Origin: Balanoglossus misakiensis
Taxonomy: Eukaryota > Animalia > Hemichordata
Reading direction: 5' to 3'
DNA: 64,000 nucleotides
NCBI GenBank assembly: GCA_040954595.2
Contig: CM082597.2
Location: 4,157,144 to 4,221,143, forward strand
Shown in pieces: positions 4,758 through 64,000 of the stretch. A program made the position numbers and the translations under genes. The notes under the pieces are model-generated. The model had not been told where the DNA came from. It made no database searches and saw nothing but the letters and a program-made list of their open reading frames with translations. How positions within the stretch are numbered: the first letter of the stretch is position 1; every line of letters begins with the position of its first letter.

Positions 4758-5354
4758 CTACAGGTATGTATCCTCTATATCTGGGTCTATGTCTGTGCTT
4801 TCAAGCAATTTGACGATGCTCGGTTGATGGGTCTTCACAGCGAGAATTAAATGTTTGTAAGCTTGGGCACCTCTGAACGGAAGACAGTCGATCAGGACCC
4901 GGGCCTTGTCGTTGTTTGTCTTCGCGCTCCGGATCCTGTCGTAATCGGAATACGTCAGCACGCCCTCCATCAGAAGGTATTGCACGAGATCCTGGTTGTT
5001 CATGTCGAGGTTTCGGATGAGCGTGTCGCGGTGAATAACAAGTCGCTGGCATTCGTCCTGGTTCGTGTCGCTAGGGTGTTTGATAATCGGCGTGTCCTGC
5101 AGCAGCTTTAGTAGATGCGGGTAGTGATCTTTCAACGAGGACTTGAAATGTTGGAAAGCAAGCGGCCCCTTAGTAGGGAGGATATCAAGAAGTTTCCGCA
5201 CGCGACTTTCCTGCTCTCGGCAAGCGTAAATTTTATCGCATTCGAATTCAGTCAAGACGATACGGTTCAAGTACAGGATCACTCGGTCAACGTTCAACTC
5301 TTCAATGAATCTCTCACGGTGAATTCGCAACTTTTCTCTGTCTCGTGGTTCCAT
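4758..5354 (-). CDS. Tandem CARD-CARD protein, 198 aa, single coding exon
   Basis: Two CARD-like repeats: MEPRDREKLRIHRERFIEEL..VRKLLDILPTKGPLAFQHFKSSL and ECQRLVIHRDTLIRNL..KARVLIDCLPFRGAQAYKHLILAV. Likely 5'UTR intron with acceptor at ~5385 and GTGAGT donor at 6248-6253. Confidence 0.85.
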   Translation of the reverse strand: MEPRDREKLRIHRERFIEELNVDRVILYLNRIVLTEFECDKIYACREQESRVRKLLDILPTKGPLAFQHFKSSLKDHYPHLLKLLQDTPIIKHPSDTNQDECQRLVIHRDTLIRNLDMNNQDLVQYLLMEGVLTYSDYDRIRSAKTNNDKARVLIDCLPFRGAQAYKHLILAVKTHQPSIVKLLESTDIDPDIEDTYL

Positions 5355-6253
5355 TTTGCTTCAGCCAACTTTTACTCCAGTGCCCTGTAATAAATTAACA
5401 AGACTATATTAAGTTTAATAATAAGTTGTTTTGTTTCAGTATTTTTGATAATCTAGTAATCAACATTTTATGAGCATAGTTCTTGGAAAGTTGTCTACAA
5501 CACACACACAGGCAGTACATTGCCATGGCAACATGTTATAAAAAGGCACTGACATGTTATCAGATCGTACCAAAACCGGACATGATATTTGTAACAGGAT
5601 CTGCGCAACAGTATAAACGCCAGCTGTTTGCGTAACACACATGATCTATTACATTAATATTATATCGCGTCATCTAGCTGAGGTAATGTGTTTGGTGCGA
5701 TGTCGAACTACTAAACAGCGGTCTTTTTCGAGGCCATATACGGTCACAGCTTCATTACATTTACAGAAACAATTACATTAATTGGAAACAAATCGCTGTT
5801 GATTTGGCATTAGCATTTACACCTACGGACGTCCACCGCGGTCATTTTGCGGGGAACAATACAAGTTATGCAAACAATCAACTCTCTTCTGGTCGTTAAC
5901 CTTACACTTATAGTACCAGAGAAATGCGTCAGCCTTGGCCAATAATTGTGAGCTTCCTGCCAAGTGTCTCCAAGGTTATTTTCTTGTCTTGAAAATCGTA
6001 CCACTTGAAACAGCCCACATTTGCGTCATATAAATCAAAGAGTGCTTTAAATGTGTTTGATCAACCAAAACATAGATCATAATCCGTCACTGCATTACAA
6101 CATGTTCGCGATCGCCGGTGAAATGTACAACGCATCGCGATCGTGTAAATTTCGGGCGCGGTGATCGTGTGTTTACAAACTTTCACTAACTGGCGAAAAA
6201 CTTTCAGGACTAACAAGAAAGCGGCTTTCTAAACATTTACATCATATACTCAC

Positions 6254-37662: not shown

Positions 37663-39028
37663 AACTGTAGCTTATGTGTATCTAACACAACATCAAGTAT
37701 GTATTTTTCAAAAAAAATTCTAAGTTTTTTTCTAGTACAATGCACCCAAGGTGACTGCAGCAAAATGCACTAAAAGTTTAGCATAGAAACAGAGATCATA
37801 GATTTTTATAAGAAATATAAAAACAAATATCTTCCTAGTATATTGATTATACAGCAATAAAAGAAGATATTCCCTGCAAAGATACTGTGTCTATAGTTCT
37901 CAATTCCACTTTCTGTCACTTCTGCAGAAAATGGCCACTATTATCTGTGTGTGAACTCTCATCAATGTGTGTACATGTACATGTATGTCAATGTACTGTG
38001 TCCTAGAAAAATATTTACATGTAAAATATACTCTAGAATTGCATATTCCTGCGTTAAAAAACGTACGAATATCAAATTTCATAAAGCATCAGTTACGTGT
38101 ATATATCATCTTTTAGTGCAAAGGTAATGCAAAAAGTATTTAATACAACTGATTTTTCACAAACTTCGAAGTTGTCCACATGTCTGGTTGCAACGAAAGA
38201 TCTTTCAGTTTTGACGACAGAGGGCGCATATTGTCAACAACATTAAAGTTTCTCGCGAAGTTGATCTCTTCCGCGACGCTATTAAACCTGCCCTGGGTTG
38301 CAGTTGTGTCTCCAACAGCTTTTATTCCGACTCTCTAAGATAGTTATAAATCGGAACCAGTCACAAGATGAGTCAATCTTGCAAGGATCGGCTTAAAAGG
38401 CAGCGTGTCCCGGCCCGGAGAGGGACGCGTGTACGCGTACGCGTGTGTGTCCGGGTTCACAGCGCGCACGCGGAACTTGCCTAAAAAGTTTGTCAGTACA
38501 TCCGTCTGAAATACCGGATCTAACTTTTTGGTTCTGTGAATTACTTGTTCACCAGTGCATTCCGTGTTCCGTCTTCAGGTAAATTCATACCCCCAAATTC
38601 TGCTTGTATTTAAGCTTTTACCGTGGGCCTAGTTGATTTCAGAGTCTCAGAGCGCGTCGATACACGCACGCTGAAGTTTCCCAAAGAGTTCAGTGCAGTG
38701 TTTACGTCTGTGAAGTGACCGTGAGAGTTGATAAGAACCTCGGAAGTCCTGAGATATATGCCCGTCATCTGCACGTTTACTTATTTACACTAGTTTAAGG
38801 TTATGCAACCACAGTTTGCAACGACTGAGAAGAAGACGGAGTAAAACTAAGACAAGCGTACAACCGGCGCACAGAGCTGATCGCGTCGCAAAGATCTGAC
38901 ATTGACAAGGTACCCGGCCAACACTGACAGCAGACCAGACCAACGACTTCTGCAGACTGCCAAGCCCCCACAACTCTTGTAAGTCTATTTGAAAATACCA
39001 CCGGCTCCATCCTTGACGCATTTACACG

Positions 39029-42000
39029 ATGGTCATCATCGACACAGCAGAACATATGCGCGGAAGCACTGGGATACATCTGTTCCATTTCCCCCAATCG
39101 AACTGCTCGCAAAAGGTGAGTGACCCTAACATGATTCAACAGGTATCTGTCCATTTTTCTTTTAAAATCTACAGTACAAAGTACATTTGTACTTCAATCC
39201 ACAGACGAAGGTAATCCATTTTAAAGTAAAGTGTTTCTCAGTTCAATTGGTACTCAAACATTTATTCTCCAAAATTTTCCCCTATGTTATTTCCTTGTGT
39301 ATATAATATGGCTAGTTACCATGGCTACAAGAAAGGTTTCACGAGGAAAGCTGAGATCTTGGAAGTAAAACATGCCAATTAAACTTTCCTGAGAAAATGT
39401 TTCATAACTTCCAGAGAATGCTGCTCCTAAAATAAACCCACATCTTGAAACTGATATCTTTGAATGACCTTCCATTTGCTGTAAGGGGAGAACCATTTGA
39501 TTTCTGGGGGGGGGGGGGGGGGTGGAGGATGTCACAATTGTTTTCAACCACTGTTACAGCACATTTTTTATTCGATTACCAGTTCACTTTTTCTTGTGAC
39601 ATTTTTTTTCTAGGCACCATCTGCCAAAAATTTTCTCTCCCCCAAAATCCTCTATCCACTCCCCAGAAATCAAATGGTTCTTCCCTAATTCAGGCTGCAA
39701 TCAGGAAGCAGCCTTCATGGCTGACATGGAAGGCCATCAAAGGCCAGATTGTCAGATTTGAGATTTCATTCACGTTTAAAAAAGAGCATTGAAGAACGAA
39801 TAACACACCCTGATTTTTTTAGATTAGCCAATCACATCAGGCCAATCACTGGCACCATGCATGCACTATAGCGCCCTCTGGAGGTATTTCAGAGCAGTTT
39901 GAAGAGACCATGAAAAGGCATAAAATAAATATTACACAATCTGATGACTTACATCACAGTTTTCACTGTTTTGCATTAATTTGCAGTCAGAACATTTCAA
40001 TGATGTGACATAAGATAATGAATACATGTACATGTATGTTGTGATGTTTTAATGTAAACAATACATGCTACTGTTTAAAAAACATTTTATTGTCATTTTA
40101 TCACAAGGTACGTATCTATCTGGAAGAGAAAGGCCTACCTTGGATCAGTCATCAAGTTGATTTGAAAAATGGCGAAAATCGGGAAGAAGATTATCTGAAA
40201 ATTAATCCCAGGGGACTAGTACCGGTCTTGATCCATGATGGAGTTACCGTCGTCGAGTCGAATGATATCCTGGTGTACCTGGAAGAGAAGTTCCCGGAAC
40301 CTCGTCTTCTGCCGAGCACTGAGTGAGTCAATCTTGGATTCCCCCCATTCTGTTTAAAGGGACAAAGTCTCTCTCTCGCTGCCCCTTTTCCATTAATTAT
40401 GTTTGATACAAGACACCGTTTATGTTAATGTACATGTGTATATGTAGTGAATCAACGTTCGACCTCACACAACTTCCATCCCACTTGTAGACATGAGAGT
40501 GAAAAACTCGCCAAAATGAATAATCGATGTTTACCATTTATTCATTTTAGCGAGATTTTTACTATGATATCTTACAAATAGGATGGAAGTTGTGTGTGGT
40601 TGAACGTTGATTCACTATATATCCACATGTAGAAAATATAAATAGTGTCTTATATCAAACATAATTAATGGAAAAAGGGCAGCGAGAGAGAGACTTTGTC
40701 CCTTTAAGAGACAGGTAGTTGTAAAAGAAAGTGTTGTACTGTAGTAAAAAGCTATTTATTTGACTTGATAAAGTTAAATACACATGCATTCTTGTGATTT
40801 TTTTCTCAGAACTGGTCAAGAATCAACACAGAGGTGGCTGAAATTATCCGATGACTTGCAGAGACCACTCAAATATTTGACTTATCATTTTCTCTTGTCA
40901 AAATTTGGCAAAGAAACTGAAGAAAGTGTCCGTAAATTGTCTCAGAACTTGGCTGATAGAGATCTGTATGAATTCCACAAGTCTGCTCAAGAAGGCTTTC
41001 CTGTTGAGATTATTCAGGAAAACATTGAAAAAACTCACTGGTGAGTACATTAGCAAAGGCTCCCTCAGTTTTTTAAAGCTTACCAACCCCTATATATCTG
41101 CGAATGGGATGACCCATGCCATTGATAACAGTGGGGTTGGACCATTGTATAGTGGAGAAAGGGGGAAAAATCTTGGTTTGGTTCTGACCAGGACATGATC
41201 AAGTGTTGGGTTTTTGTATAAACTCACAAAACCCACTAAAGCTGATATTTTCAACTGAAATGTCCTCTTAAAATGCAGAAAAATGACTTTACATTAATTT
41301 CAAATTTAATTGTTGTTCATGACAGTGGACTGGAATCAATGGAAAAGAACCTAAGCAAAAACCAATGGCTGGCCGGTGATAGTTTCAGCATCGCGGACAT
41401 TGCTCTTGTTGTCAATGTCCAGCAATATCAGAAGCTGAGATTTCCCCTGGAAAAGTATCCCAATGTCCGGGATTGGTGCAACCGAGTCCGTGCCAAGAGA
41501 TGCTTCCAGTGCGGGCTACTGGATTATGTCAGCAAACCGGAGAAAACGGTTCTTCCATTGTTAATGTGTAAGTTTTATTGCAGTTTTTCCTGTTACATTT
41601 ATTACATTTTCCATGGTTTTTGCTCCTGGTACCTGAACAAGAAAACCCACAAATTTAAAAAAGGGAACCAGATGTGTACCAATGCTTATACCTGTATGTC
41701 ATTTTCCCCCCACAGCGATCGATAATTTCCTTGGTTACGGTGTGCAGGCAGTGGAGTGGGGAGTGCGGCCATCTTGGATCAAACCTCTTGTGACAGTCCC
41801 AGTTTTGCTGCTATCGTACTTCTTTCTGCCAAATGGTATCAATGTTGCTGGAATATCAGGTAGTGTATTTGAAAATCTACCAGCTAAATTTTGTAAGAAC
41901 TGGCAGTTTTATTCCATGATCTTCTGTGTGTGTGTGTGAGAGAGAGAGTGTGTGTGAGTCTGTTTGTCTAGATCAGAATCATATATCTTTCAACAAAACA

Positions 42001-45000
42001 TTGCACAGAAATAAAAATTTACTAGAAAAATGTATATGCGTCTGTTGACTGAAAGGATCTGATAACTTTCATTTTGATCCAAAACAGAGGATTTACTGTC
42101 TTCAATCTGCCTCAATGTGCTAAACAGTGTTTAATTATTTTTTTATTTTACAGTCAGTCAACAAGTGGTTCTAGGATTACTAAGTATATTTCTATACGTG
42201 ACCACGAAGTCGTCCTATCGTCTTGCCCACACCCCTGCACAACACAGCTACCAGTCAGCCATCAAATCAATGAAAGCAGTGATTACTACAGACTATGGTG
42301 GCAAAGAAGTCATGAAAGTCAATTTGCAGCATCCTCAGCCAATCGCGGTGTGTCCTGATGATGTCATCATCCAAGTGAAAGCTGCGTCGGTGAATCCTAT
42401 TGATGTGAGAATGAGAGGTGGATATGGCCGTGTGTTGCTTGGAAAAATTCGCAGCAAGTCAAAAGTAAGATCTCAGAAATCTTCACACTCAACTTTTAAA
42501 AATATTGCTTTAAAGGCACAGTAGTGTAACTTTTGATATTTTCAGTATTTTTTGTTCTGTGTGTCACATGCATTTTCTTGTTCTACTCCCTACATCATGT
42601 TGATATGCCAAGTATTCAGCTTGCCACCACAATCAATATATATAAGAAAAATAAACATATACTAATAAAATTTCATGTTCTGTGCCTTTCACAGATTCCA
42701 TCAGGAGACGGCAAAGAATTTCCAATGATTCTTGGCAGAGACTGTTCAGGAGTGGTGGCTGCAGTGGGGTCAGGGGTCACAAAGTTTAAAGCTGGTGATG
42801 AGGTAAGACTGTGTTTTGATAATGAGAATGCACTTAGGGGGGTCTCAGTAGATGCCACTTTTAAATGTATATGTACAGCCACAATCAGCTGCAGGTTGAT
42901 ATCATGTTAGAGTATACCCATCAGTAAGCCCATTCAAAGGAACTATTTTAAGTTTAAAAGTAAACTCGTGAAAATAATGAAAAATTGGCAGCTATTGGGG
43001 CTTTAATATAACAGATCACACAACAAAAAGCCATTTTATTGTAATTACATCATCGTCTTCACCCCAGGTCTGGGCAGCAGTTCATTTCAAGCAAACTAAG
43101 GGAACCATGGCCGAGTATGTCGTTGCCAAGGAGAGCGAGGTTGCTAGGAAACCACAGAACATCAGTCATGTGGAAGCTGCATCGTTACCGTATGTTGCCT
43201 TGACAACCTGGAGTGCACTGGTCAGCGTGGGTAAATTGGGACCAGAAAGCGGTCAGGGAAAGAGGTTGGTATCCAGAACATTATATCTGTTTCACCTTGT
43301 GCACTAAATGCTTTGTATCGTCAAGGGTCAAAGTTGCTATATACTGTTGCTCTCAGACATTTTGTTTGTTTCTTATTAAAAATCCATGTTCACTGTATGG
43401 AACTGGGCTCCAACCCACAGTACACTTCTGATAATAGTATGTTTAGTCTTGTGATTTCTCTGTGGAAAATCCTGTATACATGTACATAATACCTTGATCA
43501 TATATCTGCAACCAAAGCATAAATTTTGGGCTGGAAAATATGTCCACAAGGTTTTAGTGGTGACATCTCTCATTGTTTAGCACTGAACATTTCCCACATA
43601 TACACTTGCATGATGATTTGCCTACAGTATCTCAATGGATGAACAATCATATTTACTAATACATGATGATATTTTTATACAGAGTCCTTGTCCACGCTGG
43701 TACTGGCGGCGTTGGAACATTCGCCATCCAATTAGTGAAGGCCTGGGGAGGTCATGTGACAACTACATGTGGAACGGATGGTGTTGCTATGGTAAAGGAG
43801 TTGGGAGCTGATGAAGTTGTCGACTACAAGATTGAGAATTATGAAACGAAATTAGCTGACCACCCAAAGTATGTTGGTTTGAATTATCACACCCATATAG
43901 ATTGTAGATATAGGTTTATGTGTGTATAGAGTTGTCAGACAGTGATGGAGTGAGTGTGTGAGTGATTGAGTATGCGAGCGAGACATCAAGTGAGTGAAGG
44001 AGGGGGATATAGTTACGCTACAAATTTATTCACAATACATATCATTTTGACAGGTTTGATGTTGTCTACGACACACTCGGTCCTAAATTCCAACCGGGAA
44101 GTCTGAATCTTCTGAAGAAAGGAGGAGTGATGGCGTCTATCATGGCAACCATCATGCTGCACACAGATGAGTCGGGTCTCTTGATTGGTGCTCTCAAAGC
44201 ACTTGGTGGATTGGTCAGACTTGCTGTGCCACAGGTTGGTACGAGTTTCCAAATCCTATCATTCTGTTTCTGAAAAGTGGATTGGAAACAATTTACTATA
44301 TGCATATTAGATTTATTTGACTCTAGAGAACATTTTCAGGTTTGCTGGCCGTATTTTGATTTCTCTTGTAAGCAAATTGTGTGTTTTCAGCATTGACAAT
44401 CCTTTACAAGTTTGGATGAAACATGAAAATTCTCCCCTGGTATAAAAATTATTCAGTTTTGAGTCATTGTTTTGGGCTGTTTAGTTTCTGTTGAATGGTC
44501 ACTGAAATATGCTCAATCTTTATACGCGAGCTGTCACAATTACTCAACTCGCCCTCTGTATGGCCATTATAAATTGATGTCAAAATAAGTGAAGGACTTT
44601 GCCCATGTGAGCTCTACATTCCACATTTATTCTGATCCGTGACCAACTGTTTCTTCTGCCTCACACAGCGTCTTTTCCACGGCCGGACATTCAAATGGGC
44701 ATTCTTCAATCCCAGCGGCGAGGTCTTGGAAACAATCGCAGAGCTCGTCGAACAGGGAAAGGTGAGTCATACAAAATGGTTCTGAAACCTGTAGACCCTT
44801 TTATCCACTGCTAAGGACATGAAAATTGTAAATCCTTGTACAGTGTGACACATATTCCCTTTCATGGGAAAGAGTCCAAGAAGTTTTCATTATCGTGTCC
44901 AGAAGGTCATTAACCTGATATTGGCTCTGCAACAGTTCATGGTTGCATGGTTGCTAACGAGTATAAATATTTATGTCAGATTTATGTCAGAAGTTCAGCA

Positions 45001-45196
45001 GAATCAAGCGGTTCTAAACAAATTGTTGATTAAATGCGAAATTAATATGTTCTGTATATGTGCCGGCGTTTTATTTTATATACAGATAAAACCAGTTGTT
45101 GAGAAGACGTACCCCATGGCAGATGCAGATTTGGCGTTCGGCCATGTTGAAGAGGGCCACGCGCGGGGCAAAACTGTGGTTGTCATGGACAACTGA
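39029..45196 (+). CDS. Fusion protein: GST (GDAP1/TCHQD-like) + two hydrophobic segments + RTN4IP1-like NADPH:quinone oxidoreductase (MDR family), ~701 aa
   Basis: Exons 39029-39115, 40108-40322, 40810-41040, 41326-41567, 41716-41859, 42154-42464, 42695-42802, 43068-43264, 43683-43868, 44054-44234, 44669-44761, 45086-45196 (2106 nt, no internal stop). GST: SNCSQKVR, INPRGLVPVL, ESNDI, WLAGDSFSIADI. MDR: AASVNPIDVRMRGGYG, FPMILGRDCSG, EAASLPYVALT, GTGGVGTFAIQL, GHARGKTVV. Confidence 0.85.
39482..39688. mobile_element. Tourist/Harbinger-type MITE
   Basis: taa-GGGGAGAACCATTTGATTTCTGGGG ... CCCCAGAAATCAAATGGTTCTTCCC-taa (TAA duplication). Confidence 0.75.
40354..40707. mobile_element. ~350-bp fold-back MITE with TTAA flanks (Kolobok-like)
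   Basis: ttaa-agggacaaagtctctctctcgctgccc ... gggcagcgagagagagactttgtccct-ttaa; the arms pair almost to the centre. Confidence 0.85.
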
Positions 45197-53689: not shown

Positions 53690-55840
53690 GAGGGTAATGA
53701 AAAATATCCAAAAATGACGAAATCACCAAAATTTGCTAAGTCCGGAAATTGTCATTTTTGAAAAATTTCTTCAGCTATAAACCAATGGTAACTGCCGAAA
53801 ATCCAACAAAATGGACAACATATATAATTCGCATTTACGATCTTGATAATATCGCAGAGTTAAATGACGATTATTGTTAATTAATAATGAGAAATTGTCC
53901 AAATGCCCAAAAAATCGACATTCAAAAAGTTGAAAATATGTCATTTTTTAAAAAAATATCATGATATAACCCATGAAAAATGTTCAAAAATGCCCAAAAA
54001 ATCAATATTCGCCAAATCGAAAATTTGTCATTTTTTGAAAAAAATCATGATGTATAACCCATGAAAAATGTTTAAAAATGCCCCAAAAATCAATATTCGG
54101 CAAATCGAAAATTTGTCATTTTTTGAAAAAAATCATGATGTATAACCCATGAAAAATGTTCAAAAATGCCCAAAAAATCAATATTCGGCAAATCGAAAAT
54201 TTGTCATTTTTTGAAAAAAATCATGATGTATAACCCATGAAAAATGTTCAAAAATGCCCAAAAAATCAATATTCGCCAAATCGAAAATTTGTCATTTTTT
54301 GAAAAAAAATCATGATGTATAACCCATGAAAAATGTCCAAAAATGCCCAAAAAATCAATATTCGCCAAATCGAAAATTTGTCATTTTTTGAAAAAAATCA
54401 TGATTTATAACCCATGAAAAATGTTCAAAAATGCCCAAAAAATCAATATTCGCCAAATCGAAAATTTGTCATTTTTTGAAAAAAAATCATGATGTATAAC
54501 CCATGAAAAATGTCCAAAAATGCCCAAAAAATCAATATTCGCCAAATCGAAAATTTGTCATTTTTTGAAAAAAATCATGATGTATAACCCATGAAAAATG
54601 TCCAAAAATGCCCAAAAAATCAATATTCGCCAAATCGAAAATTTGTCATTTTTTGAAAAAAATCATGATGTATAACCCATGAAAAATGTCCAAAAATGCC
54701 CAAAAAATCAATATTCGCCAAATCGAAAATTTGTCATTTTTTGAAAAAAATCATGATGTATAACCCATGAAAAATGTTCAAAAATGCCCAAAAAATCAAT
54801 ATTCGCCAAATCGAAAATTTGTCATTTTTTGAAAAAAAATCATGATGTATAACCCATGAAAAATGTCCAAAAATGCCCAAAAAATCAATATTCGCCAAAT
54901 CGAAAATTTGTCATTTTTTGAAAAAAATCATGATTTATAACCCATGAAAAATGTTCAAAAATGCCCAAAAAATCAATATTCGCCAAATCGAAAATTTGTC
55001 ATTTTTTGAAAAAAAATCATGATGTATAACCCATGAAAAATGTCCAAAAATGCCCAAAAAATCAATATTCGCCAAATCGAAAATTTGTCATTTTTTGAAA
55101 AAAATCATGATGTATAACCCATGAAAAATGTCCAAAAATGCCCAAAAAATCAATATTCGCCAAATCGAAAATTTGTCATTTTTTGAAAAAAATCATGATG
55201 TATAACCCATGAAAAATGTCCAAAAATGCCCAAAAAATCAATATTCGCCAAATCGAAAATTTGTCATTTTTTGAAAAAAATCATGATGTATAACCCATGA
55301 AAAATGTTCAAAAATGCCCAAAAAATCAATATTCGCCAAATCGAAAATTTGTCATTTTTTGAAAAAAATCATGATGTATAACCCATGAAAAATGTCCAAA
55401 AATGCCCAAAAAATCGATATTCGCCAAATCGAAAATTTGTTATTTTTTGAAAAAAATCATGATGTATAACCCATGAAAAATGTCCAAAAATGCCCAAAAA
55501 ATCGATATTCGCCAAATCGAAAATTTGTCATTTTTTGAAAAAAATCATGATGTATAACCCATGAAAAATGTCCAAAAATGCCCAAAAAATCAATATTCGC
55601 CAAATTGAAAATGTGTCATTTTTTTAAAAAAATCATGATGTATAACCCATGAAAAATGTCCAAAAATGCCCAAAAAATCAATATTCGCCAAATCGAAAAT
55701 TTGTCATTTTTTGAAAAAAATCATGATGTATAACCCATGAAAAATGTCCAAAAATGCCCAAAAAATCAATATTCGCCAAATCGAAAATTTGTCATTTTTT
55801 GAAAAAAATCATGATGTATAACCCATGAAAAATGTCCAAA
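53690..55840 (+). repeat. 88-bp satellite, AT-rich subfamily A (~21 good copies from ~53965) with a degenerate leading edge
   Basis: Unit aacccatgaaaaatgt[tc]caaaaatgcccaaaaaatcaatattcgccaaatcgaaaatttgtcattttttgaaaaaaatcatgatgtat. Confidence 0.95.
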
Positions 55841-56384
55841 ACGGCCGAAAATCTCGAAATTCGGCAACTCGAAAATTCGTGCTTTTTCGACAAAAACCAT
55901 GATGGTTAACCCATGAAAAATGTTCAAAAGGGCCGAAAATCTCGAAATTGGGCAACTCGAAAATTCGTGGTTTTTCGACAAAAACCATGATGGTTAACCC
56001 ATGAAAAATGTTCAAAAGGGCCGAAAATCTCGAAATTCGGCAACTCGAAAATTCGTGGTTTTTCGACAAAAACCATGATGGTTAACCCATGAAAAATGTT
56101 CAAAAGGGCCGAAAATCTCGAAATTCGGCAACTCGAAAATTCGTGGTTTTTCGACAAAAACCATGATGGTTAACCCATGAAAAATGTTCAAAAGGGCCGA
56201 AAATCTCGAAATTCGGCAACTCGAAAATTCGTGGTTTTTCGACAAAAACCATGATGGTTAACCCATGAAAAATGTTCAAAAGGGCCGAAAATCTCGAAAT
56301 TCGGCAACTCGAAAATTCGTGGTTTTTCGACAAAAACCATGATGGTTAACCCATGAAAAATGTTCAAAACGGCCGAAAATCTTG
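55841..56384 (+). repeat. 88-bp satellite, CpG-rich subfamily B, ~6 copies in forward orientation
   Basis: Unit aacccatgaaaaatgttcaaaagggccgaaaatctcgaaattcggcaactcgaaaattcgtggtttttcgacaaaaaccatgatggtt. Confidence 0.97.
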
Positions 56385-59300
56385 TTGCCGAATTTCAAGA
56401 TTTTCGGCCGATTTGAACATTTTTCATGGGTTAACCATCATGGTTTTTGTCGAAAAACCACGAATTTTCGAGTTGCCGAATTTCGAGATTTTCGGCCCTT
56501 TTGAACATTTTTCATGGGTTAACCATCATGGTTTTTGTCGAAAAACCACGAATTTTCGAGTTGCCGAATTTCGAGATTTTCGGCCCTTTTGAACATTTTT
56601 CATGAGTTAACCATCATGGTTTTTGTCGAAAAACCACGAATTTTCGAGTTGCCGAATTTCGGGATTTTCGGCCCTTTTGAACATTTTTCATGGGTTAACC
56701 ATCATGGTTTTTGTCGAAAAAGCACGAATTTTCGAGCTGCCGAATTTCGGGATTTTCGGCCCTTTTGAACATTTTTCATGGGTTAACCATCATGGTTTTT
56801 GTCGAAAAACCACGAATTTTCGAGTTGCCGAATTTCGAGATTTTCGGCCCTTTTGAACATTTTTCATGGGTTAACCATCATGGTTTTTGTCGAAAAAGCA
56901 CGAATTTTCGAGTTGCCGAATTTCGGGATTTTCGGCCCTTTTGAACATTTTTCATGGGTTAACCATCATGGTTTTTGTCGAAAAACCACGAATTTTCGAG
57001 TTGCCGAATTTCGGGATTTTCGGCCCTTTTGAACATTTTTCATGGGTTAACCATCATGGTTTTTGTCGAAAAAGCACGAATTTTCGAGTTGCCGAATTTC
57101 GGGATTTTCGGCCCTTTTGAACATTTTTCATGGGTTAACCATCATGGTTTTTGTCGAAAAAGCACGAATTTTCGAGTTGCCGAATTTCGGGATTTTCGGC
57201 CCTTTTGAACATTTTTCATGGGTTAACCATCATGGTTTTTGTCGAAAAAGCACGAATTTTCGAGTTGCCGAATTTCGGGATTTTCGGCCCTTTTGAACAT
57301 TTTTCATGGGTTAACCATCATGGTTTTTGTCGAAAAACCACGAATTTTCGAGTTGCCGAATTTCGAGATTTTCGGCCCTTTTGAACATTTTTCATGGGTT
57401 AACCATCATGGTTTTTGTCGAAAAAGCACGAATTTTCGAGTTGCCGAATTTCGGGATTTTCGGCCCTTTTGAACAATTTTCATGGGTTAACCATCATGGT
57501 TTTTGTCGAAAAACCACGAATTTTCGAGTTGCCGAATTTCGGGATTTTCGGCCCTTTTGAACATTTTTCATGGGTTAACCATCATGGTTTTTGTCGAAAA
57601 AACACAAATTTTCGAGTTGCCGAATTTCGGGATTTTCGGCCCTTTTGAACATTTTTCATGGGTTAACCATCATGGTTTTTGTCGAAAAACCACGAATTTT
57701 CGAGTTGCCGAATTTCAAGATTTTCGGCCCTTTTGAACATTTTTCATGGGTTAACCATCATGGTTTTTGTCGAAAAACCACGAATTTTCGAGTTGCCGAA
57801 TTTCGAGATTTTCGGCCGATTTGAACATTTTTCATGGGTTAACCATCATGGTTTTTGTCGAAAAACCACGAATTTTCGAGTTGCCGAATTTCGAGATTTT
57901 CGGCCGATTTGAACATTTTTCATGGGTTAACCATCATGGTTTTTGTCGAAAAACCACGAATTTTCGAGTTGCCGAATTTCGAGATTTTCGGCCGATTTGA
58001 ACATTTTTCATGGGTTAACCATCATCGTTTTTGTCGAAAAACCACGAATTTTCGAGTTGCCGAATTTCGAGATTTTCGGCCGATTTGAACATTTTTCATG
58101 GGTTAACCATCATGGTTTTTGTCGAAAAACCACGAATTTTCGAGTTTCCGAATTTCGAGATTTTCGGCCGATTTGAACATTTTTCATGGGTTAACCATCA
58201 TGGTTTTTGTCGAAAAACCACGAATTTTCGAGTTTCCGAATTTCGAGATTTTCGGCCGATTTGAACATTTTTCATGGGTTAACCATCATGGTTTTTGTCG
58301 AAAAACCACGAATTTTCGAGTTGCCGAATTTCGAGATTTTCGGCCCTTTTGAACATTTTTCATGGGTTAACCATCATGGTTTTTGTCGAAAAACCACGAA
58401 TTTTCGAGTTGCCGAATTTCGAGATTTTCGGCCCTTTTGAACATTTTTCATGGGTTAACCATCATGGTTTTTGTCGAAAAACCACGAATTTTCGAGTTGC
58501 CGAATTTCGAGATTTTCGGCCCTTTTGAACATTTTTCATGGGTTAACCATCATGGTTTTTGTCGAAAAACCACGAATTTTCGAGTTGCCGAATTTCGAGA
58601 TTTTCGGCCCTTTTGAACATTTTTCATGGGTTAACCATCATGGTTTTTGTCGAAAAACCACGAATTTTCGAGTTGCCGAATTTCGAGATTTTCGGCCGAT
58701 TTGAACATTTTTCATGGGTTAACCATCATGGTTTTTGTCGAAAAACCACGAATTTTCGAGTTGCCGAATTTCGAGATTTTCGGCCCGATTTGAACATTTT
58801 TCATGGGTTAACCATCATGGTTTTTGTCGAAAAACCACGAATTTTCGAGTTGCCGAATTTCGAGATTTTCGGCCATTTGAACATTTTTCATGGGTTAACC
58901 ATCATGGTTTTTGTCGAAAAACCACGAATTTTCGAGTTGCCGAATTTCGAGATTTTCGGCCGATTTGAACATTTTTCATGGGTTAACCATCATGGTTTTT
59001 GTCGAAAAACCACGAATTTTCGAGTTGCCGAATTTCGAGATTTTCGGCCTTCTGAACATTTTTCATGGGTTAACCATCATGGTTTTTGTCGAAAAACCAC
59101 GAATTTTCGAGTTGCCGAATTTCGAGATTTTCGGCCTTTCTGAACATTTTTCATGGGTTAACCATCATGGTTTTTGTCGAAAAACCGCGAATTTTCGAGT
59201 TGCCGAATTTCGAGATTTTCGGCCTTTCTGAACATTTTTCATGGGTTAACCATCATGGTTTTTGTCGAAAAACCACGAATTTTCGAGTTGCCGAATTTCG

Positions 59301-62300
59301 AGATTTTCGGCCTTTCTGAACATTTTTCATGGGTTAACCATCATGGTTTTTGTCGAAAAACCCCGAATTTTCGAGTTGCCGAATTTCGAGATTTTCGGCC
59401 TTTCTGAACATTTTTCATGGGTTAACCATCATGGTTTTTGTCGAAAAACCCCGAATTTTCGAGTTGCCGAATTTCGAGATTTTCGGCCTTTCTGAACATT
59501 TTTCATGGGTTAACCATCATGGTTTTTGTCGAAAAACCACGAATTTTCGAGTTGCCGAATTTCGAGATTTTCGGCCTTTCTGAACATTTTTCATGGGTTA
59601 ACCATCATGGTTTTTGTCGAAAAACCACGAATTTTCGAGTTGCCGAATTTCGAGATTTTCGGCCTTTCTGAACATTTTTCATGGGTTAACCATCATGGTT
59701 TTTGTCGAAAAACCACGAATTTTCGAGTTGCCGAATTTCGAGATTTTCGGCCTTTCTGAACATTTTTCATGGGTTAACCATCATGGTTTTTGTCGAAAAA
59801 CCACGAATTTTCGAGTTGCCGAATTTCGAGATTTTCGGCCTTTCTGAACATTTTTCATGGGTTAACCATCATGGTTTTTGTCGAAAAACCACGAATTTTC
59901 GAGTTGCCGAATTTCGAGATTTTCGGCCTTTCTGAACATTTTTCATGGGTTAACCATCATGGTTTTTGTCGAAAAACCGCGAATTTTCGAGTTGCCGAAT
60001 TTCGAGATTTTCGGCCTTTCTGAACATTTTTCATGGGTTAACCATCATGGTTTTTGTCGAAAAACCGCGAATTTTCGAGTTGCCGAATTTCGAGATTTTC
60101 GGCCTTTCTGAACATTTTTCATGGGTTAACCATCATGGTTTTTGTCGAAAAGCCACGAATTTTCGAGTTGCCGAATTTCGAGATTTTCGGCCTTTCTGAA
60201 CATTTTTCATGGGTTAACCATCATGGTTTTTGTCGAAAAGCCGCGAATTTTCGAGTTGCCGAATTTCGAGATTTTCGGCCTTTCTGAACATTTTTCATGG
60301 GTTAACCATCATGGTTTTTGTCGAAAAACCGCGAATTTTCGAGATGCCGAATTTCGAGATTTTCGGCCTTTCTGAACATTTTTCATGGGTTAACCATCAT
60401 GGTTTTTGTCGAAAAACCGCGAATTTTCGAGTTGCCGAATTTCGAGATTTTCGGCCTTTCTGAACATTTTTCATGGGTTAACCATCATGGTTTTTGTCGA
60501 AAAACCGCGAATTTTCGAGTTTCCGAATTTCGAGATTTTCGGCCTTTCTGAACATTTTTCATGGGTTAACCATCATGGTTTTTGTCGAAAAACCGCGAAT
60601 TTTCGAGTTGCCGAATTTCGAGATTTTCGGCCTTTCTGAACATTTTTCATGGGTTAACCATCATGGTTTTTGTCGAAAAACCGCGAATTTTCGAGTTGCC
60701 GAATTTCGAGATTTTCGGCCTTTCTGAACATTTTTCATGGGTTAACCATCATGGTTTTTGTCGAAAAACCGCGAATTTTCGAGTTGCCGAATTTCGAGAT
60801 TTTCGGCCTTTCTGAACATTTTTCATGGGTTAACCATCATGGTTTTTGTCGAAAAACCGCGAATTTTCGAGTTGCCGAATTTCGAGATTTTCGGCCTTTC
60901 TGAACATTTTTCATGGGTTAACCATCATGGTTTTTGTCGAAAAACCGCGAATTTTCGAGTTGCCGAATTTCGAGATTTTCGGCCTTTCTGAACATTTTTC
61001 ATGGGTTAACCATCATGGTTTTTGTCGAAAAACCGCGAATTTTCGAGTTGCCGAATTTCGAGATTTTCGGCCTTTCTGAACATTTTTCATGGGTTAACCA
61101 TCATGGTTTTTGTCGAAAAACCGCGAATTTTCGAGTTGCCGAATTTCGAGATTTTCGGCCTTTCTGAACATTTTTCATGGGTTAACCATCATGGTTTTTG
61201 TCGAAAAACCGCGAATTTTCGAGTTGCCGAATTTCGAGATTTTCGGCCTTTCTGAACATTTTTCATGGGTTAACCATCATGGTTTTTGTCGAAAAACCAC
61301 GAATTTTCGAGTTGCCGAATTTCGAGATTTTCGGCCTTTCTGAACATTTTTCATGGGTTAACCATCATGGTTTTTGTCGAAAAACCACGAATTTTCGAGT
61401 TGCCGAATTTCGAGATTTTCGGCCTTTCTGAACATTTTTCATGGGTTAACCATCATGGTTTTTGTCGAAAAACCGCGAATTTTCGAGTTGCCGAATTTCG
61501 AGATTTTCGGCCTTTCTGAACATTTTTCATGGGTTAACCATCATGGTTTTTGTCGAAAAACCGCGAATTTTCGAGTTGCCGAATTTCGAGATTTTCGGCC
61601 TTTCTGAACATTTTTCATGGGTTAACCATCATGGTTTTTGTCGAAACACCGCGAATTTTCGAGTTGCCGAATTTCGAGATTTTCGGCCTTTCTGAACATT
61701 TTTCATGGGTTAACCATCATGGTTTTTGTCGAAAAACCGCGAATTTTCGAGTTGCCGAATTTCGAGATTTTCGGCCTTTCTGAACATTTTTCATGGGTTA
61801 ACCATCATGGTTTTTGTCGAAAAACCGCGAATTTTCGAGTTGCCGAATTTCGAGATTTTCGGCCTTTCTGAACATTTTTCATGGGTTAACCATCATGGTT
61901 TTGTCGAAAAACCGCGAATTTTCGAGTTGCCGAATTTCGAGATTTTCGGCCTTTCTGAACATTTTTCATGGGTTAACCATCATGGTTTTTGTCGAAAAAC
62001 CGCGAATTTTCGAGTTGCCGAATTTCGAGATTTTCGGCCTTTCTGAACATTTTTCATGGGTTAACCATCATGGTTTTTGTCGAAAAACCGCGAATTTTCG
62101 AGTTGCCGAATTTCGAGATTTTCGGCCTTTCTGAACATTTTTCATGAGTTAACCATCATGGTTTTTGTCGAAAAACCACGAATTTTCGAGTTGCCGAATT
62201 TCGAGATTTTCGGCCTTTCTGAACATTTTTCATGGGTTAACCATCATGGTTTTTGTCGAAAAGCCACGAATTTTCGAGTTGCCGAATTTCGAGATTTTCG

Positions 62301-64000
62301 GCCTTTCTGAACATTTTTCATGGGTTAACCATCATGGTTTTTGTCGAAAATCCGCGAATTTTCGAGATGCCGAATTTCGAGATTTTCGGCCTTTCTGAAC
62401 ATTTTTCATGGGTTAACCATCATGGTTTTTGTCGAAAAACCGCGAATTTTCGAGTTGCCGAATTTCGAGATTTTCGGCCTTTCTGAACATTTTTCATGGG
62501 TTAACCATCATGGTTTTTGTCGAAAAACCGCGAATTTTCGAGTTGCCGAATTTCGAGATTTTCGGCCTTTCTGAACATTTTTCATGGGTTAACCATCATG
62601 GTTTTTGTCGAAAAACCGCGAATTTTCGAGTTGCCGAATTTCGAGATTTTCGGCCTTTCTGAACATTTTTCATGGGTTAACCATCATGGTTTTTGTCGAA
62701 AAACCGCGAATTTTCGAGTTGCCGAATTTCGAGATTTTCGGCCTTTCTGAACATTTTTCATGGGTTAACCATCATGGTTTTTGTCGAAAAACCGCGAATT
62801 TTCGAGTTGCCGAATTTCGAGATTTTCGGCCTTTCTGAACATTTTTCATGGGTTAACCATCATGGTTTTTGTCGAAAAACCGCGAATTTTCGAGTTGCCG
62901 AATTTCGAGATTTTCGGCCTTTCTGAACATTTTTCATGGGTTAACCATCATGGTTTTTGTCGAAAAACCGCGAATTTTCGAGTTGCCGAATTTCGAGATT
63001 TTCGGCCTTTCTGAACATTTTTCATGGGTTAACCATCATGGTTTTTGTCGAAAAACCACGAATTTTCGAGTTGCCGAATTTCGAGATTTTCGGCCTTTCT
63101 GAACATTTTTCATGGGTTAACCATCATGGTTTTTGTCGAAAAACCACGAATTTTCGAGTTGCCGAATTTCGAGATTTTCGGCCTTTCTGAACATTTTTCA
63201 TGGGTTAACCATCATGGTTTTTGTCGAAAAACCACGAATTTTCGAGTTGCCGAATTTCGAGATTTTCGGCCTTTCTGAACATTTTTCATGGGTTAACCAT
63301 CATGGTTTTTGTCGAAAAACCGCGAATTTTCGAGTTGCCGAATTTCGAGATTTTCGGCCTTTCTGAACATTTTTCATGGGTTAACCATCATGGTTTTTGT
63401 CGAAAAACCGCGACTTTTCGAGTTGCCGAATTTCGAGATTTTCGGCCTTTCTGAACATTTTTCATGGGTTAACCATCATGGTTTTTGTCGAAAAACCGCG
63501 AATTTTCGAGTTGCCGAATTTCGAGATTTTCGGCCTTTCTGAACATTTTTCATGGGTTAACCATCATGGTTTTTGTCGAAAAACCACGAATTTTCGAGTT
63601 GCCGAATTTCGAGATTTTCGGCCTTTCTGAACATTTTTCATGGGTTAACCATCATGGTTTTTGTCGAAAAACCACGAATTTTCGAGTTGCCGAATTTCGA
63701 GATTTTCGGCCTTTCTGAACATTTTTCATGGGTTAACCATCATGGTTTTTGTCGAAAAACCACGAATTTTCGAGTTGCCGAATTTCGAGATTTTCGGCCT
63801 TTCTGAACATTTTTCATGGGTTAACCATCATGGTTTTTGTCGAAAAACCACGAATTTTCGAGTTGCCGAATTTCGAGATTTTCGGCCTTTCTGAACATTT
63901 TTCATGGGTTAACCATCATGGTTTTTGTCGAAAAACCACGAATTTTCGAGTTGCCGAATTTCGAGATTTTCGGCCTTTCTGAACATTTTTCATGGGTTAA
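56385..64000 (-). repeat. 88-bp satellite subfamily B in inverted orientation, ~86 copies, running off the window
   Basis: Reverse complement of the B unit with an 88-bp period (also evident from the spacing in the ORF track). Confidence 0.98.

Follow-up and report, generated by a model that had tools for sequence, protein, structure and literature searches.

The window analysed here, a 64,000-nucleotide stretch of the genome of the acorn worm Balanoglossus misakiensis, holds on its plus strand a gene of 12 exons (39029–45196) that splice to 2106 nt, encoding 701 amino acids and a stop. A stop-free frame of about 701 residues had been proposed in the first-pass annotation, and the spliced genomic sequence bears this out, with no internal stops and GT-AG borders at 11 of 11 introns (Table 1). 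The encoded protein runs in a single frame from a GST through two hydrophobic helices to an RTN4IP1-like reductase. The domain order proposed at first pass is recovered by Pfam, which places the GST and ADH families in sequence along the exons (GST_N in exon 2, GST_C in exon 4, ADH_N in exons 6–7 and ADH_zinc_N/_2 in exons 9, 10 and 12). The join on which the fusion turns, from the phase-1 end of exon 41716–41859 to position 42154, is in frame across an intron measured at 294 nt, where about 295 bp had been estimated, and the stop that read-through would meet, previously given as 41939, is found at 41937–41939. The AATAAA in this intron is within chance, since about 24% of 2000 shuffles of intron 5 also contain one.

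Table 1. Exons and landmarks of the fusion gene in the B. misakiensis window.
Feature	Position	Strand	Content
Exon 1	39029..39115	+	Start codon, GST N-terminus; S-N-C-S motif (Ser24, Cys26) at 39098-39109
Exon 2	40108..40322	+	GST N-domain; glutathione-site residues cis-Pro68 and Glu79-Ser80 (invariant columns); Pfam GST_N_2, E 2.8e-18
Exon 3	40810..41040	+	GST helical domain, including the long insert typical of the bacterial S-x-C-S GST family
Exon 4	41326..41567	+	GST C-domain; Pfam GST_C, E 2.7e-11
Exon 5	41716..41859	+	End of GST-family region; first hydrophobic helix, residues 280-297 (41778-41831); phase-1 donor
Junction intron (intron 5)	41860..42153	+	294 nt; donor GTAGTG; read-through stop 41937-41939; single AATAAA at 42010
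Exon 6	42154..42464	+	Second hydrophobic helix (residues 309-325), basic Ser/Thr-rich spacer, start of reductase
Residues in exon 6	42270 (Met346)		Met346; Arg406 (human RTN4IP1 Arg103)
Exon 7	42695..42802	+	Reductase GroES-like domain
Exon 8	43068..43264	+	Reductase
Exon 9	43683..43868	+	NAD(P)H-binding glycine motif, residues 513-523; Gly520 (human Gly215); phase-2 donor (human c.806)
Exon 10	44054..44234	+	Reductase
Exon 11	44669..44761	+	Reductase
Exon 12	45086..45196	+	Reductase C-terminus and stop; Pfam ADH_zinc_N_2, E 8e-8

Pfam neighbours of the gene between 1949 and 52500 comprise a GDSL-type hydrolase, a tandem CARD protein (4758–5360, minus strand), CFAP91, CKS, a succinate dehydrogenase membrane subunit, a Meis/PKNOX-type homeobox gene and nicastrin; in the human genome SDHC, CKS1B and nicastrin are all on 1q. 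An 88-bp satellite, in 28 and 87 copies with a strand switch near 56370, occupies 53901–64000. With its introns and its position between the Meis/PKNOX-type gene and nicastrin, the fusion gene is not a contaminant. GC3 is equal in the GST and reductase halves (0.48), so there is no signal of recent transfer, as expected for an old event. Two fold-back elements, in intron 1 (39484–39686, arms of 31 nt, 90%) and intron 2 (40354–40707, arms of 73 nt, 93%), are likely to be miniature inverted-repeat transposons. Upstream, a CpG-rich stretch read by eye at 38400–38580 is followed by a GT donor near 38580; the fusion gene may have its promoter here, along with a first exon that is non-coding.

The same architecture recurs in RefSeq in three acorn worm families. 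Full fusions are found in Ptychodera flava (701 aa, 517/701 residues or 74% identical to the window protein) and Glandiceps talaboti (699 aa, 439/699 or 63%), each mapping in order to 12 of the 12 exons, and a partial protein from Saccoglossus kowalevskii covers exons 2–8 including linker and junction (329 bits in the exhaustive search, with a GST-plus-linker query). Full-length orthologues that follow every exon, and a partial one that crosses the junction, make the fusion more than a chance arrangement. The database names are RTN4IP1-like (P. flava and G. talaboti) or 'uncharacterized', so the GST half is hidden. An exon 6 query among longer proteins gave four matches from 123 candidates, headed by the whole P. 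flava and G. talaboti fusions, and all three matches from 4368 candidates in a word-based search of 385–1227-aa proteins were from acorn worms. In an exhaustive search of 1.84 billion protein representatives, 11,201 matches to the GST half passed E 0.001, of which the best 150 were examined and the source looked up for 10; no other GST-reductase fusion was present among those 150. Sixteen of them exceed 300 aa, namely the P. flava representative and 15 that were domain-scanned, and among these 15 a reductase domain was found only in the Saccoglossus protein. By these searches the fusion appears confined to acorn worms. The Saccoglossus and Ptychodera lineages are reported to have split more than 370 million years before the present (PMC4729200), and since both carry the fusion the gene predates that split.

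The P. flava cluster has six members: four full fusions that come from two neighbouring models, an isoform without exon 7 and a fragment of the reductase. The isoform, X3, skips 36 residues matching exon 7 of the window, and such differences falling at window exon borders suggest that introns are shared and that the models are transcript-based. The accession numbers of two near-identical fusion models and the reductase fragment (P0001, P0007 and P0008) are close, and these may be recent tandem copies or, alternatively, a haplotype duplication.

The GST half has mostly bacterial relatives. In a search of shorter proteins it was matched by 271 of 529 candidates, and in the 120 matches listed every named organism is a bacterium; the best stand-alone relative listed shares 45% identity over 93% of the domain (248 bits), compared with 67 bits for GDAP1 and 69 bits for LigF against the same window protein. 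The match to the bacterial S-x-C-S GST family (P0013 and its kin) starts at Met1 and takes in both an extension before the first strand and the insert, so the fusion has no mitochondrial presequence. The S-x-C-S motif reported at first pass is intact as S-N-C-S, with Ser24 and Cys26 invariant in 23 of 23 aligned sequences, and the S-x-C-S/A motif is present in 224 of 266 matches. The structure-nearest Atlas clusters are likewise bacterial where taxa are recorded (five of six rows), and a genome scan gave 80 loci (L001–L080), all bacterial by title and many of them marine. A profile of 42 non-animal members scores BbdI at 175 bits, LigF at 114 and GDAP1 at about 115, and the window domain at 298 bits, a figure that is partly circular because members were chosen as matches of P0001. 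The best GST match in NCBIfam is maleylacetoacetate isomerase, of the zeta class (TIGR01262, maiA), which falls below its cut-off of 171 bits for both P0001 (96.8) and P0002 (91).

Trees were built from 83 rows with FastTree and from 58 of these with IQ-TREE, the row set being one without animal GDAP1, PcpC or LinD. The four acorn worm GSTs form one clade (100/100) nested in the bacterial S-x-C-S family; the enclosing branches have moderate support (91/84 and 94/86), with no firm sister group. Judged by sequence, the GST half is thus a member of an uncharacterised, mostly bacterial S-x-C-S GST family and not of GDAP1, and it is probably of bacterial origin by gene transfer. Two members of the same family, P0212 from the protist Artemidia motanka and P0314, carry a C-terminal hydrophobic tail. 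A shared origin of the worm sequences with these tail-anchored protist-like relatives was rejected (p-AU 0.026, in a test picked after the trees were seen), and their tails, set beside the worm hairpin, suggest that this GST family gained membrane anchors more than once.

These data bear on whether the GST half might instead be a diverged GDAP1-like animal gene, GDAP1 being a comparison drawn in the first-pass annotation, or the whole model two neighbouring genes merged by predictors. Of the solved proteins, GDAP1 matches the bacterial family best by sequence, and it is described as nearer to bacterial GSTs than to the other GSTs of eukaryotes (PMC10104300), but it has neither the Cys nor the N-terminal extension and reaches 67 bits where bacterial relatives reach up to 248, so that a GDAP1 ancestry is not upheld. 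A merger might be read from the junction donor, by eye the least consensus-like of the gene, and from the AATAAA that follows the read-through stop; against this, the linker is in frame in four of four species, with 63%, 49% and 39% identity to the three orthologues over residues 246–344, and a GST-only form is absent from the six members of the P. flava cluster. We regard either version as highly improbable.

For the reductase half, the RTN4IP1-like assignment made at first pass is sustained. The NAD(P)H motif is intact, human RTN4IP1 leads the solved matches (E 9e-87, 295 bits; the next is at E 7e-38), and the Atlas model has a TM of 0.95 to an RTN4IP1 cluster. Four further intron positions, besides the one described below, are presumably shared with human RTN4IP1. 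The equivalent of human Arg103 (Arg406) is kept in four of four species and that of Gly215 (Gly520) in all three complete ones, and mutants of both residues are reported to lose activity (PMC10830421). Intron 9, in phase 2 at codon 574, aligns with human codon 269, that is c.806, the site of a reported human splice variant, c.806+1G>A (PMC9563936, supplement). On these comparisons the reductase half is an animal RTN4IP1, with an exact intron position in common with the human gene.

It could then be supposed that the fusion is the worm's only RTN4IP1, or that it serves coenzyme Q metabolism, where the GST would recover Q intermediates from their glutathione adducts at a mitochondrial membrane. 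This would agree with the reductase half being the most conserved part (83% to P. flava), with the retention of the tested RTN4IP1 residues and with the absence of a separate acorn worm RTN4IP1 among the 123 candidates, a small set. However, human RTN4IP1 is described as a matrix protein with a presequence (PMC10830421), while the N-terminus of the fusion is a folded GST. Nor could a presequence-bearing form start by ATG within the fusion gene, since past the junction neither intron 5 nor exon 6 has an in-frame ATG ahead of Met346. We therefore consider a role of this kind unlikely.

The two hydrophobic stretches noted earlier in the linker are present, with 19-residue hydropathy peaks of 1.59 and 1.86 in the window protein, which are moderate, and of 2.0–2.3 in two orthologues. 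By simple hydropathy a pair of hydrophobic helices, a near-uncharged loop and basic flanks form a pattern common to four of four species, and the P. flava protein model predicts helices at 280–297 and 309–344 (pLDDT 52–75 there). The input alignment for folding (A1) had two rows in the reductase half and gave a model (mean pLDDT 64.6, pTM 0.52) too poor for reading domain packing. The simplest reading is that the linker probably forms a membrane hairpin: as its loop is uncharged and its flanks are basic, the two domains would lie on the same side of the membrane and, there being no N-terminal targeting sequence, this side is probably the cytosol.

The likely history would begin with entry of a bacterial GST gene into the acorn worm stem, where it would have gained introns and then been joined, by a phase-1 splice, to a copy of RTN4IP1 at the first coding exon of that copy. 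We rejected the idea that an operon of GST and reductase in bacteria was the template for the fusion, a medium-chain reductase lying within 5 kb of the bacterial GST in only 5 of 80 loci.

What the fused enzyme may do is suggested by chemistry described in other systems. Dehalogenating Cys-type GSTs are reported to work through a glutathione adduct, which is cleaved by the active-site cysteine, itself reset by a second glutathione (DrcA, PMC3205185; PcpC, PMC3318906, PMC6922536), and in the pentachlorophenol pathway the quinone reductase PcpD feeds PcpC (PMC3318906, PMC6922536). Enteropneusts are reported to contain bromophenols and bromoquinones (PMC6315191). Together with the likeness of the GST half to BbdI, these observations make bromoquinone reduction, followed by the stripping of glutathione or bromine, our best reading: by analogy, the fusion would be a two-step membrane-tethered enzyme acting with NAD(P)H and through Cys26, to which we assign a probability a little under one half (about 0.45). 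The reductase half would convert (bromo)benzoquinone to hydroquinone, the GST half would form or accept a glutathione adduct, and Cys26 would strip the glutathione before a second glutathione reset it, so that the outcome would be deglutathionylation or reductive debromination. With the two domains tethered, hydroquinones would be passed on before they re-oxidise, and the scheme would parallel the separate PcpD and PcpC steps in pentachlorophenol breakdown. RTN4IP1 itself is reported to have no strong preference among the quinones tested and to need proximity to its partners (bioRxiv 10.64898/2026.07.16.738879). The tie between the fusion and worm bromine chemistry is one of co-occurrence in a single lineage. 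Zeta-class isomerases also carry an S-x-C-S/A motif; being general to them and to the bacterial family, the motif does not specify dehalogenation.

The surroundings of the bacterial genes point to general catabolism. In raw counts over the 80 loci, neighbours include short-chain reductases (24), aldehyde dehydrogenases (19), alkyl-sulfatase-like genes (11) and arylsulfatases (9); the two sulfatase types, along with TRAP transporters, are often near the family, which is a lead to substrates from raw counts. No halogen-specific family is among the 31 commonest neighbour clusters, and annotated LinD or PcpC on plasmids was not found among the records listed (40 of 370, 40 of 1130, 40 of 121 and 29 of 29). 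The fusion could thus have the same structure and origin but be a general detoxifier of sediment or dietary electrophiles with no special tie to brominated compounds, its substrates being plain quinones, enones, aromatic ethers or glutathione adducts, and its GST perhaps an isomerase or ether lyase. Such a role is a possibility to be taken seriously, if one we tentatively disfavour: the generic catabolic neighbours fit it, as do the beta-etherase LigF as best structural match of the GST half, maleylacetoacetate isomerase as best NCBIfam match (below cut-off) and the description of acorn worms as deposit feeders (PMC6315191), but BbdI outscores LigF against the family profile (175 vs 114 bits) and many deposit feeders are without the fusion, as far as the best 150 of 11,201 matches show.

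Bromoquinone chemistry could also serve light emission, the enzyme supplying or recycling bromohydroquinone and fixing how reduced and how brominated it is. Riboflavin, together with a polybrominated benzoquinone, has been implicated in the light of P. flava (PMC4208949), but the gene is older than the Saccoglossus/Ptychodera split, and we think this role very unlikely. The wider form of our preferred reading, bromoquinone reduction followed by stripping, is that acorn worms built an organohalogen enzyme of their own from a bacterial dehalogenase-like GST and a copy of RTN4IP1, a quinone reductase tied to mitochondrial disease; the product would be a membrane-bound single-chain equivalent of PcpD and PcpC that would set the redox state and bromine number of bromoquinones. 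By analogy this is a real possibility, though less likely than not; if true, a chemistry that may stem from the animal or from a symbiont would have a first enzyme encoded by the worm. Whether acorn worms make and manage haloaromatics themselves is a question left open in one account of their chemistry (PMC6315191), and the fusion is a concrete, assayable candidate on the animal side.

The first-pass annotation knew of no description of a GST-RTN4IP1 architecture, and we found none in the open-access full-text literature, a result that subscription literature and primary papers on acorn worm chemistry could alter; 'glutathione' is absent from the main text and two supplements of the hemichordate genome paper. 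Both domains are known and RefSeq models exist, so the new part is apparently the fusion architecture: a real, conserved, chimeric and apparently undescribed gene, for which we infer a function. Behind an RTN4IP1 label in RefSeq stands a gene that was probably transferred from bacteria, was joined to one native to animals and has persisted for over 370 million years; it opens a way into a family of marine bacterial GSTs that is uncharacterised, and into new uses for RTN4IP1.

Comparison with known systems sets the fusion apart from each of them. Human RTN4IP1/OPA10 (PDB 2VN8), a zinc-free medium-chain quinone oxidoreductase, resembles it in Arg103, Gly215 and the c.806 intron position, but is a stand-alone matrix protein, whereas the fusion has no presequence and places the reductase behind a GST and a hydrophobic hairpin. 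GDAP1 is in the same broad GST branch and, as in the fusion, its GST is followed by an amphipathic and a membrane helix; in contrast it has S-F-S-S in place of S-N-C-S, is tail-anchored with nothing beyond the anchor, and is reported to have no convincing GST activity (PMC10104300). DrcA, the Dictyostelium DIF dechlorinase, is a Cys-type GST of a eukaryote and takes halogen off a haloaromatic of the organism's own (PMC3205185) but, by description, is a native gene of the Ure2p class with no fused reductase. BbdI from Aminobacter MSH1, a glutathione-dependent thiolytic dehalogenase (PMC8460812), is the closest characterised GST found, with 30% identity and the same S-x-C-S motif, its Cys at the start of helix 1; it lies outside the 50-row tree group that contains the worm sequences, which counts against the dehalogenation reading. 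LigF, which cleaves lignin ethers in sphingomonads, heads the Foldseek matches to the GST half (28% identity, with a TM of 0.85 by target) and has 114 bits on the family profile. PcpC of Sphingobium chlorophenolicum has what we take to be the same S-x-C-S motif as the fusion GST and, like BbdI, is a soluble single-domain bacterial protein, unlike the fusion. A glutathione-dependent reductive dehalogenase, it shares the chemistry proposed here and the order of the pathway, in that it follows the quinone reductase PcpD (PMC3318906, PMC6922536); PcpD is a flavin/iron-sulfur protein, whereas the reductase of the fusion is of the medium-chain type.
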